The notes below the pieces were generated by a model. The model was not told where the DNA came from and did no database searches. It saw only the letters and a list, made by a program, of their open reading frames with translations. From Reclinomonas americana ATCC 50394 (lineage: Eukaryota): DNA of 45,258 nt. Below, piece by piece: positions 433 through 29,823 of the stretch (position 1 is its first letter; the number at the start of each line of letters is the position of its first letter). The DNA lies in the NCBI GenBank assembly GCA_048213135.1, contig PS015218.1:57131-102388 (forward strand), read 5' to 3'. A program made the translations under genes and the position numbers.

Positions 433-806
433 GCTGCATTCCGAAAGCGTCGTCACCCGATCGAAGTTGAGCTGCATGCGCAGTTGCAACTGATCGGAAT
501 CCGTCCTTCTCCTATCGCATTCACCGTCACCACCTACGGCATTATTCGCGCTAAATGAGCTTTTGCCGCCGCCGCCACCATATGCTCGACATCGGGAGAA
601 TTCTGCAAGCCGGGTGCACCATCATGTCCAATTGCATGTTCGGGTACACACAGTATACCTCTTTGCAGCGAGACAGACGGAGGGACCCGCTTGCAGGCTT
701 GCACAGACCCATTTGCGAAGTAGCAGTAGGAGGTCTGAGAGAAGGCGGGAGCGCCACCGACAAACCGCAACTTTGGGTTGTCGGACAAAAGTTGAGTTGA
801 AGCAGC
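433..806. ncRNA. Candidate structured non-coding RNA; identity and strand unresolved
   Basis: Intergenic and free of microsatellites. Nested complementary segments: 433-441/799-806, 457-475/480-497, 505-511/739-745, 529-537/726-734, 545-549/715-719, 553-557/710-714, 603-615/685-696, 757-763/778-784. Confidence 0.45.
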
Positions 807-19653: not shown

Positions 19654-21193
19654 TCAGCGGCCCCAGAAGAACATCATCACCCATTCGTACGTGACAAAGA
19701 CCATGGCGTGCAGTGGTAATGCTCGCAGCAGGGCCATGCCCAAGCCGCGGTGGAAGGCAGCTGACGATCGACAAAGAGTGAGTACGACTGGGGAGAACAA
19801 ACAACCAGCAGCAACACCCACACAACACTCACCAAAGCCGCCCTCCTGATACAACTGTAAAATAACAACACACCCGAGTTAATTCTCTCACCACACTTAC
19901 TTCCCCCGCCCCCGCTTCGCCCCACTCACATGTCGCGCACAGTCCACGATGCCTGTGAATTGACCGGGAAGAGCATTGCTCATGCGTGTCTTCAGCACAT
20001 CTATGTAGTACATCGGTGGCAGCCACTGGCTCACGCCAGCAATGCCACCGGCCAGTAATGTTCGAGGAACCGACAGGTGCTCCGACGGATCGGCGTCGGC
20101 GGGGCGCAGATAGCGCTTCGCCAGGTCATACGTCGGGTAGTAGAACTGTGACAGGGGAGAGAAGTGAGTGAGACAACTGGCTTGAAGATGCAAATGTGGC
20201 GACGCAACAGCCAACTGCATCGCCTCACGCAGGAATGTGGCCGACATGCCACGGAACAGACCGCCATACACGCCCTCTCTTCTTATGAGATCTAATGCGC
20301 AGGCGCCCGACCAACTGTAGGGCGAGTGACCGCCCGGCAACTCACGCGCTTGCATGACGATCTTGACGCGTTCCAGCACCTGCCGCAGAGGTGCTTGCGC
20401 TATACCTGAGAGAGCACCACAACACAGCAGCTCAGGGACGCTGAGCTGCGTGACATGCTCCGCCTCGGAGACGATGCGCACGGCCCAGCCGTACGACGCG
20501 AAACCCACGGCCTTGATGAGACCGTACCCTGGTGTATCACAACACACAACAGTCAGCTCGTGAGCGGGGACAGGTGGTAAGGAGAGAGTGTGTACGAGAC
20601 CGGCAATGGGTGATAGCAGGCCGCGGTAGAGTGACAGCGGTCCATCGGCACGAATCACACGTGCCAGAGCCTCTCGCTGCGCGTGTGCATGAGGTAAGCA
20701 ACGAGAAGCGAAAGGAGGATCTCCCAAGGGCACACTGACCGCAGCGAGTCCATGCGCGCCCCGATACGTCTGCAGTCGGGTCTTGAGTGCTGCAAGTAAA
20801 ATCGCGTCAGGTTCGGCAGCGTTCGACAGGGACAACAACAACAAAAAACACGCAACTATCAAGCGGATACACCACCGTCACAGCCGCCGCACCAGCTGCC
20901 CACACAGACGAGAGAGAGAAATGAGCACGCGCGCAAATATGAAACAGAGATGCGGTCGTCGCACCAACGCTGCCCGCCAATAGCTCCTCGACGACCTTGC
21001 TCAGCTGGAGATGCGCTGCGACGCCCACGGGTGTGCCAAACGATGGCTTGGGCGTCATGGTCACTGTTGCTGCTGCTGCTTGTGGTGGTGCTTGTGGTGG
21101 TGGTGATTGAGCAGCAGCAGCAGAAGAGGGTGATGATGATGATGTGGATGATGATGACGACGATGACGATGTGGATGACATGGTGAGCGTCAT
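19654..21193 (-). CDS. Mitochondrial carrier (SLC25) paralog 1, amino-acid/carnitine-ornithine carrier-like; 8 exons; Ser/Ala/Pro-rich N-terminal extension
   Basis: Three repeats: YPLDTLKTRLQ...LYRGLLSP; QVLERVKIVMQ...GLFRGMSATFLRE; YYIDVLKTRM...AFHRGLGMALLRALPLHA. Confidence 0.92.
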
Positions 21194-24674: not shown

Positions 24675-26626
24675 TCATTGTGGCAGTGCTCTGGAGACGG
24701 CCTCGAAGCAGAAAAAGACAAGCTGTTGCACGCACACAATAAGTGAAAAAGTGAGTGGAGAGAGGAGGGAGCAGATGCGGGCACGAAACTGCATGCATGG
24801 GCAGTGCTCGGATGATTGCTGGCACGAGACCGCGGTGAAAGGCAGCAATGCCTCCTTCGTGCCATATCTGTGTGCAGGCACGAGAGAGATGGGTGAAGGG
24901 CTCCACAAAGAGAGATGGACAAGCAAGCAGCACGCACTTCGCGCACACAGTGCATCAAGGCTGCGAGCGCAACCAGTGAGAAAACCATGCAGTATCGATC
25001 CCTGGCGAAAATGGCACGCAACAAGTGTACTGGCCCGGATGAGCGTTGCTCATGCGCGTCTTCACCACATCGATGGGATACAAGGGTGGCATCCTACAGT
25101 TGCGCTGGCGGTGAGCAAGTTGTTGCACACATAGAGTCACCATCGACGTGACATGAACTTACCACTGCAAGACTCCGGCCACCGCACCTGGATCGGCAAT
25201 CACATGTAAGTGCACCAGATCGCTTACCCAGCTGAACAAAAAGGAATGCACGTACCAGCCACGAGACAGCGCTGCAGAGAGAGCTGATCACCCGGCTTGG
25301 CGTCGGCTGGCGTCAGCGCTCGCTTGGTGATGTCGTCTGCAGACCCAGGCATCTCTTGATTCACACAAACACAAACATGTGCAGCATCCACGGAGGAGAC
25401 GCAACACGTGGGATAGTAGACGCCGAACTGGGTGCCCTCACGAATCATGGTGGCCGACAGACCGCGGAAGAGGCCGTGTCGGAATCCTTCTCTCCTCACC
25501 AGGTCGGCGACACACGCACCGGACCAGCGATAGGGCGCCAGACCGCCTGCCCGTTCCCTGCCTGCCGAAAGCAATCACACACCAAACAGAAAGGAGATCA
25601 GAGAAAAGGAGAGAGTGCAGTGGCGACGTAGGAGCACGGAACCTTGCATGACAATCTTCACACGCTCAAACTAATTAATGCATTGGCGATGAGTGTTTCC
25701 GTTGTCAGTGTCCAAGCAAGTGCGGAAACATAACACGAACGACGTGAGCTCACCACCTGCAACACACATACACACGGTAAGAGACTCGTGCAGTGACAGC
25801 GGATGCCGCTGCACGACGCAACATGCCGAACGGGACCCTGCGCGATACCAGCAAAGAAACCGCAGGCGCCCAACTCCCACACCGACAGCTGCTTGTGCGG
25901 ATCGCCGCCCTGCATCGTGCGTCGCGCCCAACCATTGGAACCGAAGCTGAGAGCAAGTCAGGAACAGTGGCGTGGGGCCAGCGAAGAAAGCCACAACTTT
26001 GCACACCTGATGGCGTACATGATGCCGTCTTTCTCATGCAACGACGAAGGTAAGCGACGATCTGACTCGGAAGCGATACACACACACACGCACTGCAGTG
26101 TAACGCAACAGCCTGCACAGCAGAGAGTCAGCAATCGCATCAACACAGAGGCACACGACGAGGTGATCATGACAAACCACTGACAGGGCTCAACAGGCCG
26201 CGATCTGTGCGATGACACTCGTGAGCATGCAGCGGGGGCGGGTGAGCAAGAGAGAGACGCAACAGAGCGCCCGGTAACCGTCGGCACGGATCATGGACTG
26301 CATCGTGGAGTACTGCATGCATGCAAAGCTCAGTGATCACTCGCAACACTGAGAGAGAGACACACACACACACAGACCATGCCAGCACCGCTGGCGCCAC
26401 GGTGCAGCTGCAGTCGCGTCTTGGCAGTGTCAAAGGGCTGTGCACGATCATGGTCAGCGCCGAGGAAGGGGGAATGCAACTCATGTAGTACTCACAAACA
26501 CAGCAGTGATGCCAATCGCTCCCGCTGTGTGCATCGAGTGGAGTGAGAGTGTGGATGTGGAGGAGGACGGCGGTCAGGAAGAAGACCGATGGAGCCGGCA
26601 GCAAGGTCGTGCACCAGTGCTTGCAT
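24675..26626 (-). CDS. Mitochondrial carrier (SLC25) paralog 2; 17 exons including two 3-nt microexons
   Basis: MQALVHDLAAGSI/AGAIGITAVF/PFDTAKTRLQ...YRGLLSPVSGYGIMYAISF...PVRHVFERVKIVMQ...GLFRGLSATMIRE...YPIDVVKTRM...AFHRGLVPAIIRALPMHA/LVFFCFEAVSRALPQ*. Open frame after splicing. Confidence 0.9.
25754..25756 (-). other. 3-nt microexon (GTG, Val) in carrier paralog 2
   Basis: Minus strand ttgcag|GTG|gtgagc. Supplies the V in PVRH-V-FERVK, aligning with QVLERVK of paralog 1. Confidence 0.8.
26110..26112 (-). other. 3-nt microexon (GCT) in carrier paralog 2
   Basis: Minus strand ctgac...gtgcag|GCT|gttgcgt. G+GC and T+AC give Gly-Tyr, restoring the GYG of paralog 1. Confidence 0.8.
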
Positions 26627-26661
26627 GACGCGAACGATGGACGACGATTTGTCCTTTGTTT

Positions 26662-28475
26662 TTATTGTGGCTCGGGAAGTTTGCCGAAGAGCAGTAACAT
26701 GGACGCCTCGTAGCTGAAGAAGACAAGCTGCGTGGAGACCCGGCGAGAGGTCGGTCATCGGAGACAAGGGTCTCGGAAGAATGGAAACGACGTCAACGCA
26801 ACTGCGTGCATCGGAAGTGCTCGTGCCAGTGCTGGGACGAGTCCGCGATGAAAGGCGCCGATGCCGCCCTCGGCGTACAGCTGCAGAACCAGACACACAG
26901 GTCAGTGTGAGAGGATCGAGGCTGTAATGAAAGCGGAGAACGTACCTTGCGAATGCAGTCCCAGACACCTGTACATGTGTTTGTACAAGGGTCTTGGTGA
27001 GCACGTGTGCTGAGTTGCATCGCATCGGACTCGTCGTGCACAAACCAGTGTACTCGCCAGGCAGCGCATTACTCATGCGTGTCTTCACGACGTCGATCGC
27101 GTACAGCGGTGGAAGCCTGCGAAAACAGAGGCAAGGGTGAGCCACCGATGAGACGATCGGTGTGTGCTCGTAGTGCACCATTGCAGCACACCGGCCGCAG
27201 CGCCGGCCACCAGGCACTGCACCAGCGACACGTGGTTGGCGGGCGCATCGGCTGGTCTCAGTGCCTCCTTCACCAGATCGTCTGCCACGCAGCGCAGTGA
27301 ACGAGAGAGTCACGAAGAGAAATCGCTGGGATGCGCCACGCAACAGGCTGGATAGTAGACGGCGAACTGAGCGCATTCGCGAATGGTGGTCGATGTGTTG
27401 CCACGAAAGAGGCCCTGCCTCAAACCCTCTTTCCGAATGAGATCTGCGGCACACGCTCCCGACCAGCGATACGGTGCGTGACCGCCGGCACTTTCACGAG
27501 CTGTCGCACAGTCAGTGAAATGCAAGGAAACTCGACGGCACATGGCGCGTCACCTTGCATCACGATCTTGACACGCTCAAACTGCGCTCCTCCACACACG
27601 AGAATGTTCAAGTGAGAAAAACAACGCCACGGCAATCACCTGGGTGACTGCAAACACGAACCACCTGCGTCGCGGGAGTGAGCCAGCAGCAGCGAGGAGA
27701 AAGACACCACGCTTGCACGCAACATGCGTGGGAGGCGCCTGTGCGAGACCAGCAAAAGCCCCACACAGGGCCAGCTGGTACACCGAGAGTGGCTTGCTGT
27801 CTTCCCCACCCTGCATCGTGCGTCGTGCCCAACCGTATGCTGCAAAACTGCGACATCCGCCCGCGAATGAGATCACAAAGAGGCGAGTTGCCAGCACGCA
27901 GCGTATTCGCACTCACCTGATGGCGTACATGCCACCATCTATTAGCGGCATCGGCGAGGAGAGCACTGCAGTGAGCAAACAACTCCACAGCGACACGGAC
28001 GAGGAGACAACTCACATCCTGCAAGCATGCACCAAAGTGAGGCAACTCGCCACAAGAACGGCTTGCATGCAAGATGCACTCACCGGACACTGGCGACAGC
28101 AGTCCGCGATATAATGAGCGCACACCGTCCTTCCGTACCAGATCGCGCATCGCCGACATCTTTTGCACAAGAAAGGTGATTTCTCCGAGTTTTCGAACAT
28201 GATCACTCACACACACAACACACGGACCATGCCAATGCCGTGTGCGCCGTGATGCACTTGGAGGCGAGTCTTGGCCGTGTCAAACGGCTGCACATGGGTG
28301 AACACAAGAGACGCATGACACGAGAGAGAGAGAGAGAGAGAAAAGGCGACGCACAAAGACAGCCGTGATGCCGATCGATCCAGCTGCGCACTGGTGTCAG
28401 TGGTCGCCACTCACCTCTCTTGTTGCAGCACTCACCGATCGATCCAGCCACCAAGTCCGCGATGAACGCGTCCAT
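26662..28475 (-). CDS. Mitochondrial carrier (SLC25) paralog 3; 15 exons including two 3-nt microexons
   Basis: MDAFIADLVAGSI/AGSIGITAVF/PFDTAKTRLQ...LYRGLLSPVSGYGGMYAISFAAYG...PPTHVFERVKIVMQ...GLFRGNTSTTIRE...YAIDVVKTRM...AFHRGLVPALARALPMHA/LVFFSYEASMLLLFGKLPEPQ*. Confidence 0.9.
27662..27664 (-). other. 3-nt microexon (GTG, Val) in carrier paralog 3
   Basis: Minus strand ctcac...acgcag|GTG|gttcgt; same position as the paralog 2 microexon at 25754-25756. Confidence 0.8.
28016..28018 (-). other. 3-nt microexon (GAT) in carrier paralog 3
   Basis: Minus strand ctcac...ttgcag|GAT|gtgagt. G+GA and T+AT give Gly-Tyr; same position as 26110-26112. Confidence 0.82.
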
Positions 28476-28580
28476 CGCGAAACAAAAGAAGTCCTGCGCA
28501 ACAAGTGTCCTGCCAATCATCATCCCTCGTCCGTCCCTCCCGTGCGCTGGTCATCCACAGCCTTCAATCGCACACACACC

Positions 28581-29823
28581 ATGTCGTCCATGCGCAACCT
28601 CACCAAGCGACGCAACCACAGAGAGGTTGGTCTCCTCTTCATTTCTTTGACTCTCTCTCTGCGTGTCTCTCTGTTGTCACCCACCTCGCCATGGAGTGTG
28701 TGTGATTCCTCCCCTCGCCTTCTTCTTCTTGTTGTTGGGAGAATCGGGGCCTCTTTTTTTGGGGGGCGGTGGTCTGTGCATGTGAATGTGCACTTACACT
28801 CGTTTTCCGCCCAGCGCTCGCAACCCGGCGCCCGCCAACATCGCGGCCTGCTGGAGAAGCACAAGGACTATGTGGAACGCGCTCGTGACTTTCACAAGAA
28901 GGAGGTGAGTCTTCTACTGAGAGTGTGACACACACACACACACACACATCCTCTGGGAGCGGCCTCGTCTCGACCAGCTCACGATGAATGATCACCACGT
29001 AGGATCGTCTGAGGAAACTCACCGAGGCCGCCAGCATGCGCAACCCCGACGAGTTCTACTTCAAGATGATCAACTCGTCCACCAAGAACGGCGTTCACAT
29101 ACAACTGCGACCAGAAGAGGAGCTCGGGAAGCACACGGCTGATGAGCTGCGACTGATGCATACTCAGGACTTGGGCTATCTGCGCATGCGCAAGCAAATG
29201 GAGGAGAAGGTCGGTGTTTGGTGTCGTCTTCTCTCTCTCTCTCACACGCAGTATGTGCGCTGTGCTCACACGTACCACCACCACTGTTGCGCTCGCCAGA
29301 AAATCGAAAAGCTGCAGGGCGAGCTGACCTTTGCGAATGCCGATGGCCCGATCGCCACGGCCTCGCGGCCGACACATCGCGTGTTTGTGTCGTCGGAGGA
29401 GCAAATAGAGGAGTTTGACCCCACCGAGTACTTTGACACGCCGCTGGAGCTGCTGGATGTGAAGCACAACCGGTGAGACCTTCTCGTATTTTCCCCCCGC
29501 TCGCTCTGTCTCGCCCGCGCTCATTTGCCGGCAGACCTCGCACGGCCAAGGTGGCCGAACTGGCGGCCGCCATTGCTGCTGAGGGAGAAAAGGCCGTGGC
29601 TTCCAGGGTGCTGCCGCGGACCACGGAGAAGACACGGAAGCAGCGCAAGCGTTTGTACACGGAGCTTGCCGACCGCATCGATCGTGAGGAGAAGGTCGAT
29701 CGAGTGATTCGCAAGCTGGAGTTGCAGAAGAATCTGATGAACAAGGGCAAGCGACGCAAGGTGGCGCCCGCCAAGGACGGAGAACCGGCGGTGTTCAAGT
29801 GGTCTCGAGAGCGCAAGCGATGA
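28581..29823 (+). CDS. UTP11: U3 snoRNP/SSU processome protein UTP11 (5 exons)
   Basis: MSSMRNLTKRRNHRE/RSQPGARQHRGLLEKHKDYVERARDFHKKE/DRLRKL...RNPDEFYFKMINS...LMHTQDLGYL...FDPTEYFDTPLELL...VFKWSRERKR*. Confidence 0.95.

Follow-up and report, generated by a model that had tools for sequence, protein, structure and literature searches.

Four probable 3-nucleotide exons retained at two positions in tandem mitochondrial carrier genes of Reclinomonas americana

A stretch of 45,258 nucleotides (nt) from the protist Reclinomonas americana ATCC 50394 (assembly GCA_048213135.1, contig PS015218.1, positions 57,131 to 102,388), which is called the window here and in whose own numbering all positions are given, carries two complete mitochondrial carrier genes, P2 and P3, that lie head-to-tail on the minus strand. 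Inside them sit four segments of the form cag|NNN|gt, each of which is a probable 3-nt exon. P3 (28475..26662) has 15 exons and 14 GT..AG introns of 52-80 nt and encodes 293 amino acids from the ATG at 28475 to the TAA at 26664-26662, and P2 (26626..24675) has 17 exons and 16 GT..AG introns of 58-83 nt and encodes 288 amino acids from the ATG at 26626 to the TGA at 24677-24675. A third and more distant paralog, P1 (21193..19654), has 8 exons, 7 introns of 63-75 nt and 352 amino acids, and it has no 3-nt exon. P1 and all the segments and introns of the carrier genes described below are also on the minus strand. The models of P2 and P3 were built by reading the DNA and were then checked by a script for an open frame and for GT..AG introns. 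When the three genes are taken together, all 37 introns are GT..AG and are 52-83 nt long. Outside 14 masked runs of N the G+C content of the window is 55-62%, and an Rfam scan of the window gave no match.

Mitochondrial carriers are built of three repeats of about 100 residues, each of which has the signature P-x-[DE]-x-x-[KR]-x-[RK] on its odd-numbered helix. The signatures of repeats 1, 2 and 3 are PFDTAKTR, VFERVKIV and AIDVVKTR in P3 and PFDTAKTR, VFERVKIV and PIDVVKTR in P2, Val standing for Pro in repeat 2. When single exons were compared with the Pfam profile Mito_carr (PF00153), which has a cut-off of 22.3 bits, exon 5 of P1 scored 38.5 bits and exon 11 of P2 scored 23.1 bits, and exon 10 of P3 at 21.2 bits was slightly below the cut-off. 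A family profile was made from 95 homologs, none of which came from the window, and a second one from the 5 closest homologs. Against the 95-homolog profile the spliced full-length models of P3 and P2 scored 327.8 and 324.5 bits, respectively, and full models ranged from 324 to 332 bits. By the profile and by the three repeats, P2 and P3 are members of the mitochondrial carrier family (PF00153, SLC25). A HMMER search returned 529 relatives, the best of them 41-56% identical, and none of the database proteins compared with P1, P2 and P3 was more than 53% identical; a word-based search with exon 5 of P1 matched a single protein, with 59% identity over that exon. Relatives of the homolog P0009 are named 'solute carrier family 25 carnitine/acylcarnitine transporter 20/29' and the homolog P0006 is named 'carnitine/acylcarnitine carrier protein', and named relatives of these types are only 40-53% identical to P1-P3. 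Going by these names, P2 and P3 would be SLC25A20/29-like (carnitine/acylcarnitine or basic amino acid carrier), a label that carries no substrate assignment.

The four segments occupy two positions, the same two in both genes. At the first position are GAT in P3 (28018..28016, cag|GAT|gtgagt) and GCT in P2 (26112..26110, cag|GCT|gttgcgt), which are in phase 1 on both sides and supply bases 2 and 3 of a Gly codon and base 1 of a Tyr codon, these being G|GA and T|AT in P3 and G|GC and T|AC in P2. At the second position are GTG in P3 (27664..27662, cag|GTG|gttcgt) and GTG in P2 (25756..25754, cag|GTG|gtgagc), each of which is one complete Val codon with a phase-0 intron on either side and puts Val in the signature-Pro column of repeat 2. 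The original prediction, which had been made from the sequence, placed four microexons at these coordinates and had them complete a Gly-Tyr pair or add a Val, with GCT and GAT differing only synonymously, and direct reading of the minus strand bore out all of this, the two Gly codons being GGC and GGA. It also called them single-codon exons, which is right for both GTG exons, which are whole codons, and not for GCT and GAT, which straddle two codons. The exon that follows GAT in P3 is 22 nt long (27938..27917, AT GGT GGC ATG TAC GCC ATC AG) and is itself a microexon, and the one that follows GCT in P2 is also 22 nt long (26028..26007, AC GGC ATC ATG TAC GCC ATC AG). With the microexons included, the proteins of P2 and P3 read LLSPVSGYG at the first position, compared to LLSPIAGYG in P1, and H-V-FERVKIVMQ at the second, compared to QVLERVKIVMQ in P1. 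That P1 has the same residues in continuous exon sequence, as had been proposed, holds for QVLERVK but not for GYG, because a phase-1 intron of P1 (20600..20529) cuts the Gly codon after its first base, at the same place as the intron upstream of GCT and GAT. Skipping keeps the frame at all four sites and deletes one residue, as was foreseen. The loss of GAT or GCT would turn Gly-Tyr at the start of transmembrane helix 2 into Asp, and the loss of GTG would remove the Val in the signature-Pro column of helix 3.

The introns on either side of the four segments were then compared with the ordinary introns of the carrier genes, 29 in number, which served as a leave-one-out reference for the splice scores. 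In P3, GAT is preceded by intron 4 (28083..28019, 65 nt), which opens with GTGAGTGC, has CTCAC 19 nt from its end and closes on TTGCAG (donor 7.4 bits, acceptor 9.5 bits), and is followed by intron 5 (28015..27939, 77 nt), which opens with GTGAGTTG, has CTCAC 33 nt from its end and closes on CTAATAG (donor 7.5, acceptor 1.8). The GTG of P3 lies between intron 7 (27723..27665, 59 nt; GTTGCGTG at the start, CTCAC 14 nt from the end, ACGCAG at the end; donor 5.4, acceptor 6.5) and intron 8 (27661..27582, 80 nt; GTTCGTGT, CTCAC 31 nt from the end, GCGCAG; donor 5.1, acceptor 7.9). In P2, GCT lies between intron 5 (26177..26113, 65 nt; GTTTGTCA, CTGAC 15 nt from the end, GTGCAG; donor 3.0, acceptor 4.2) and intron 6 (26109..26029, 81 nt; GTTGCGTT, CTTAC 22 nt from the end, GAGAAAG; donor 4.6, acceptor 4.1), and GTG lies between intron 8 (25822..25757, 66 nt; GTTGCGTC, CTTAC 21 nt from the end, GTTGCAG; donor 5.5, acceptor 5.1) and intron 9 (25753..25671, 83 nt; GTGAGCTC, CTGAC 34 nt from the end, TTAATTAG; donor 5.6, acceptor -0.7, the weakest site of the set). 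The eight flanking introns are thus short and complete in themselves: all are GT..AG, all are 59-83 nt long and all have YTNAY at 14-34 nt from the 3' end. That each microexon has a branch-like motif and acceptor to itself agrees with the original prediction. The inner splice sites are within the score range of the 29 ordinary introns, the acceptors before the 3-nt exons scoring 4.2-9.5 bits and the donors after them 4.6-7.5 bits.

A side observation on the donors of these genes is that GTTGCG opens 10 of the 37 carrier introns (at 27723, 27344, 26802, 26263, 26109, 25822, 25405, 25022, 20856 and 20208). The base before it is T in eight cases and A in two and is never G, whereas G precedes 22 of the other 27 donors. 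The heptamer GTTGCGT occurs 36 times in the window compared to 11.6 +/- 3.1 times in shuffles, and none of 100 shuffles reached 36. The GTTGCG donors may form a second class of 5' splice site.

The comparison of P2 with P3 tells how the four segments have fared since the two genes separated. Over 287 aligned codons the amino-acid identity is 70.4%, the proportion of synonymous differences (pS) is 0.67, the synonymous distance (dS) is 1.65 and the ratio of nonsynonymous to synonymous distance (dN/dS) is 0.145, which indicates purifying selection on P2 as well as on P3. In the 14 homologous intron pairs of P2 and P3 the similarity is no greater than that of shuffled sequence (z scores from -1.4 to 2.6, mean 0.04), in agreement with the divergence of the flanking introns that had been claimed. 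In contrast to these randomised introns and saturated silent sites, P2 and P3 agree in all 8 bases of the inner AG and GT dinucleotides and in 5 of the 6 microexon bases, and the sole difference is at a synonymous third position. Under neutral decay at a distance of 1.65 the probability of retaining both AG and GT at one site is 0.012. The 3-nt exons resemble conserved constitutive microexons in that they have canonical and complete flanking introns and have been kept in place in the paralogs P2 and P3 while these introns diverged.

The protein family gives a second measure. When each product with the microexon was compared with the product without it, the 95-homolog profile favored inclusion by 10.0 bits for GAT and 7.8 bits for GTG in P3 and by 10.2 bits for GCT and 8.0 bits for GTG in P2, and with the profile of the 5 closest homologs the gain was 8.8-10.7 bits. 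In an alignment with 151 homologs P2 and P3 are free of gaps across both microexon regions, and among the homologs that cover the flanks no gap was found in the Gly column (0/126), the Tyr column (0/127) or the Val column (0/144). In the Val column 112 of the 144 homologs have Pro, as in the carrier signature, and 21, including the closest members of the subfamily, have Val. Three metagenome loci, L001-L003, which are from a distant eukaryote with about 40% G+C, encode carriers of the same subfamily that are 68-72% identical to exon 10 of P3. Their residues at both microexon sites are within continuous exons, which supports the residues and not the exon structure. Their reading frame is broken at one or two places only, compared to 14-16 in P2 and P3. 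With inclusion giving the best family fit at all four sites and the encoded columns free of gaps, and with the AG, the GT and the exon bases kept while silent sites and introns have been saturated, the proposal that the microexons are maintained by selection is well supported.

The database relative closest to these genes, P0001, is an automatically predicted protein that contains two of the three carrier repeats only. At about residues 95-115, the place of G-[YF]-G in the family, its sequence is ...IIVDGVYIRHSF.... The Asp-Gly found there is the product that skipping of the GAT or GCT exon would give in P2 and P3, and so the P0001 model may hide a missed microexon; judging by this residue pair, its gene may have the same split Tyr codon.

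The same data bear on the possibility that only a fraction of the transcripts contain the 3-nt exons, by regulated or leaky alternative splicing, skipping being either direct or by way of re-splicing at the GT that GTG itself supplies. This could be imagined since skipping would preserve the frame everywhere and since both Val exons begin with GT right after AG, which on paper permits a zero-exon route, and in the plant genes described by Yu et al. (PMC8831610) coding microexons are reported to be alternatively spliced though usually included. The skipped products, however, would lose a residue from columns in which no gap was seen in 126-144 homologs and would score lower by the 7.8-10.2 bits given above, the zero-exon donors of both GTG exons reach 1.3 and 0.9 bits compared to 5.6 and 5.1 bits for the donors of the model, and GCT and GAT have no zero-exon route at all. 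We regard alternative splicing of this kind as unlikely. Recursive splice sites are similar to these segments in that a donor comes nearly immediately after an acceptor within an otherwise long intron, and they differ in that here three bases that fit the protein lie between AG and GT. They were rejected as a description of the segments on the same grounds, that is, the absence of GT after AG in GCT and GAT and the weakness of the zero-exon donors at GTG.

Whether some other splice path would serve as well was examined by listing, at each site, all GT-AG paths that remove either a single intron or two introns on the two sides of an inner exon of 1-30 nt. There were 339-1178 such paths per site, of which 58-291 had an open frame, and the 3-nt model ranked first at all four sites, among 135 open-frame paths for GAT and 287 for GTG in P3 and among 58 for GCT and 291 for GTG in P2. 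With so many open alternatives and with runners-up that are 1.9-4.8 bits below the top, it might be argued that the gene models are wrong and that the true path has an inner exon of 9-12 nt or, in P3, uses the acceptor at 27966, which gives an open path that adds 8 residues in helix 2. The runners-up, however, differ between P2 and P3 and no alternative path is common to both paralogs, and the route by way of acceptor 27966 scores 15.8 bits less than the 3-nt model and its counterpart in P2, by reading, meets a stop codon. A related suspicion, that P2 and P3 are decaying pseudogenes, does not agree with their complete frames of 288 and 293 amino acids and the low dN/dS. Wrong models or pseudogenes are therefore highly improbable as an explanation of the four segments.

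How often such a motif arises by chance was also estimated. A bare AG-NNN-GT with both halves at least 50 nt long is found in 8.2% of random 145-nt introns. When splice scores equal to those observed, a branch-like motif and the two required coding letters are demanded as well, the fraction falls to 1e-4. When the whole window was scanned at the splice thresholds of the four sites there were five AG-NNN-GT sites, namely three of the claimed exons, one site in intron 6 of P2 and one at 533..531. The GCT exon narrowly missed these thresholds, which had been rounded up from its own scores. The candidate at 533..531 was rejected, because it is in a region without a clear coding frame and the count is within chance expectation. 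The site in intron 6 of P2, cag|TGC|gtgtgtgt (26092..26090, minus strand), has an acceptor of 5.5 bits and a donor of 5.1 bits; if used in place of GCT it would encode Val-His and score 4.3 bits lower, and it is a possible decoy or minor alternative.

These counts are what one would cite in favor of the view that the segments are not exons at all, that P2 and P3 have single introns of 142-152 nt at these places, that the residue is absent from the protein and that AG-NNN-GT has been kept by chance or as an intronic aid to splicing. The bare motif is common in random introns and has its expected frequency across the window, and the neighboring gene Utp11 shows that introns of 98 and 189 nt do occur. 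What does not fit is that the same exon is at the same place in both copies despite the randomised introns, that an equally good site restoring the family residue is expected in so small a fraction of introns, that the family profile favors inclusion at all four sites, and that when the exons are used every one of the 37 carrier introns is within 52-83 nt, which introns of 142-152 nt would exceed. That the segments are merely intronic is thus very unlikely. Since the count of AG-NNN-GT across the window matches expectation, the motif by itself proves nothing, and the evidence for the microexons lies in their place, their conservation and their coding fit.

On this evidence we consider it likely that the four segments are genuine 3-nt exons, that they are present in most or all of the mRNAs of these two tandem SLC25A20/29-like carrier genes and that they are selectively maintained. 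Several points weigh against this conclusion. The five sites found across the window compare with 4.9 expected, and one of them, the TGC site, is inside the very intron that follows GCT. The lead of the 3-nt model over the runner-up at the Val site of P2 is just 1.9 bits. On the whole the splice signals of these genes are weak, with leave-one-out means for the 29 ordinary introns of 4.0 bits for donors and 5.7 bits for acceptors, and two of the outer acceptors are poor, namely TTAATTAG of P2 intron 9 and CTAATAG of P3 intron 5, although these two are needed by any gene model. The first two introns of the adjacent Utp11 gene, at 189 and 98 nt, are longer than every carrier intron, which weakens the argument from intron length. 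P2 and P3 are not independent witnesses of the origin of the exons, because one ancestral event would explain both copies, and they do not amount to four independent events; what is independent is their retention, in two lineages and at two sites. Finally, the inclusion of the segments in mRNA is deduced from DNA alone; a search for sequencing runs over 24700-28600 listed no RNA, and such runs may still exist.

If the four segments are 3-nt exons, a probable course of events is that both microexons predate the separation of P2 from P3 and that purifying selection has since kept each exon together with the preceding AG and the following GT, because the loss of either would drop one residue from the core of the carrier. 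Every carrier intron, being 52-83 nt long, would be self-sufficient and its splice sites would be paired across the intron, in which case the length of the exon would be irrelevant, and intron definition would be a plausible mode of splicing. Removal of the two flanking introns would probably take place one after the other, because a 3-nt exon is too short for both neighboring splice complexes to be accommodated at once.

This leads to the question why exons so small are found in these genes. P2 and P3 have 18.5 and 15.9 introns per kb of coding sequence, respectively, compared to 6.6 in P1, and so high a density, 16-18 per kb, is roughly threefold that of human genes. The internal exons of P2 and P3 average 52-60 nt, and 8 exons in P2 and 6 in P3 are 30 nt or shorter. 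From a geometric distribution of sizes P2 is predicted to have 0.84 and P3 to have 0.64 exons no longer than 3 nt, so that the observed number is near what random placement of introns would give and the 3-nt exons would need no function of their own. They look like a by-product of extreme intron density that was then frozen by selection on the residues that they encode.

Since the P1 intron 20600..20529 is at the same Gly position, the intron upstream of GCT and GAT is shared by all three genes and only the downstream intron is extra in P2 and P3. The Val of P1 is within the continuous 320-nt exon 5, and five neighboring intron positions of P3 fall inside this exon, among them three of the four at the borders of microexons. 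If P1 lost these introns by way of a cDNA, its exon 5 would record the inclusion of the microexons. By reading of the gene models, four of the intron positions of P1 are common to P2 and P3 and three are its own. A wider proposal is that the spliceosome of this protist has no practical lower limit of exon size and that 3-nt exons, arising from dense introns, are routine, constitutive and selected in its housekeeping genes; we put this forward tentatively, as somewhat short of an even chance. Were it true, the intron-poor P1 would be a fossil of a spliced mRNA, one that records ancestral inclusion of the microexons.

An origin of the microexons from copied introns, either introner-like or tandem, was considered and rejected, because the introns have no similarity to one another: in an all-against-all blastn comparison of the 37 introns the matches were only 9-14 nt long, and 51 of 666 pairs had E <=1, the best being 0.006. 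A 14-nt repeat, GCTGGATCGATCGG, at 28435-28448 and 28370-28383 (minus strand) brackets intron 1 of P3 and encodes the AGSI-AGSI of helix 1. It is probably not a target-site duplication, and was rejected as one, since AGSIAGSIG fits the family pattern and P2 and P1 share the intron without having the repeat.

Some features of the surroundings may be mentioned here. Between the stop codon of P3 (26664-26662) and the start of P2 (26626) there are only 35 bases (26627-26661), and so short a distance leaves no space for a separate promoter and untranslated regions, and so P2 and P3 may be co-transcribed or the promoter of P2 may be inside P3. The Utp11 gene (Pfam PF03998, 72.7 bits; 28581-29200, plus strand) is divergent from P3, and the two start codons are 105 bases apart. 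The N-terminus of P1 (20965-21193, minus strand) has an extension of about 60 residues that is rich in Ser, Ala and Pro, is absent in P2 and P3 and has three in-frame ATGs as possible starts.

Exons of 3 nt test how near two splice sites may lie to each other and still function, and the well-known conserved columns of the carrier family together with two old paralogs make it possible to test such exons for selection without RNA. The logic of this test, that is, saturated introns, a kept AG-NNN-GT and a family profile, can be extended to the rest of the genome. There is also a practical side to it, as an annotation that omits these exons gives carriers with a residue deleted in helix 2 and at the helix 3 signature, and gene predictors, which have been reported to miss tiny exons in plants (PMC8831610) and in Coprinopsis (PMC12230235), may also miss those of P2 and P3, as the original prediction expected. 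The finding opens no new kind of biology, since plants and a fungus are already proven to have exons of 1-3 nt. No protist genome said to be rich in 3-nt exons came up in a literature search, and such a report may still exist.

The closest parallel is in plants. Among the cases reported by Yu et al. 2022 (PMC8831610) are 1-nt exons of APC11 and VPS55 that are conserved across land plants, were confirmed by reverse transcription PCR (RT-PCR) and are absent from annotations. The plant microexons described there and the exons of P2 and P3 are alike in being coding exons of a few bases, mostly or constitutively included, that lie between ordinary introns, are conserved in place and are needed for an intact protein. 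In that report the microexon is present in some copies of a gene, and in others the introns are absent and its bases lie within a larger exon, just as P2 and P3 differ from P1, and for their own cases the authors argue for sequential removal of the two flanking introns. The plant exons differ in that they are proven by RNA-seq and RT-PCR and are conserved across species, whereas those described here are known from DNA and from two paralogs of one genome, and in that P2 and P3, with 16-18 introns per kb of coding sequence, have a much greater intron density. In Drosophila, a survey reported that all 12 of the novel microexons that were tested were validated (PMC8042270). In the fungus Coprinopsis cinerea, long reads are reported to support exons of 3 nt in 27 cases, exons of 2 nt in 57 and exons of 1 nt in 13 (PMC12230235). 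That genome resembles the present case in that it has short introns and a spliceosome that handles exons of 3 nt or less, and the two differ in that the fungal result is a genome-wide count and ours is a paralog-based test of selection in a protist. In the nank genes of Tuber melanosporum there are arrays of microexons the size of a codon (Iotti et al. 2012, cited in PMC4986451), which have in common with P2 and P3 the 3-nt exon size and the short introns between. As they are described there, however, these are long tandem arrays in variable regions that are thought to diversify proteins by alternative splicing, whereas the exons of P2 and P3 are isolated, are in the conserved core of a housekeeping carrier and are separated by introns that are dissimilar.

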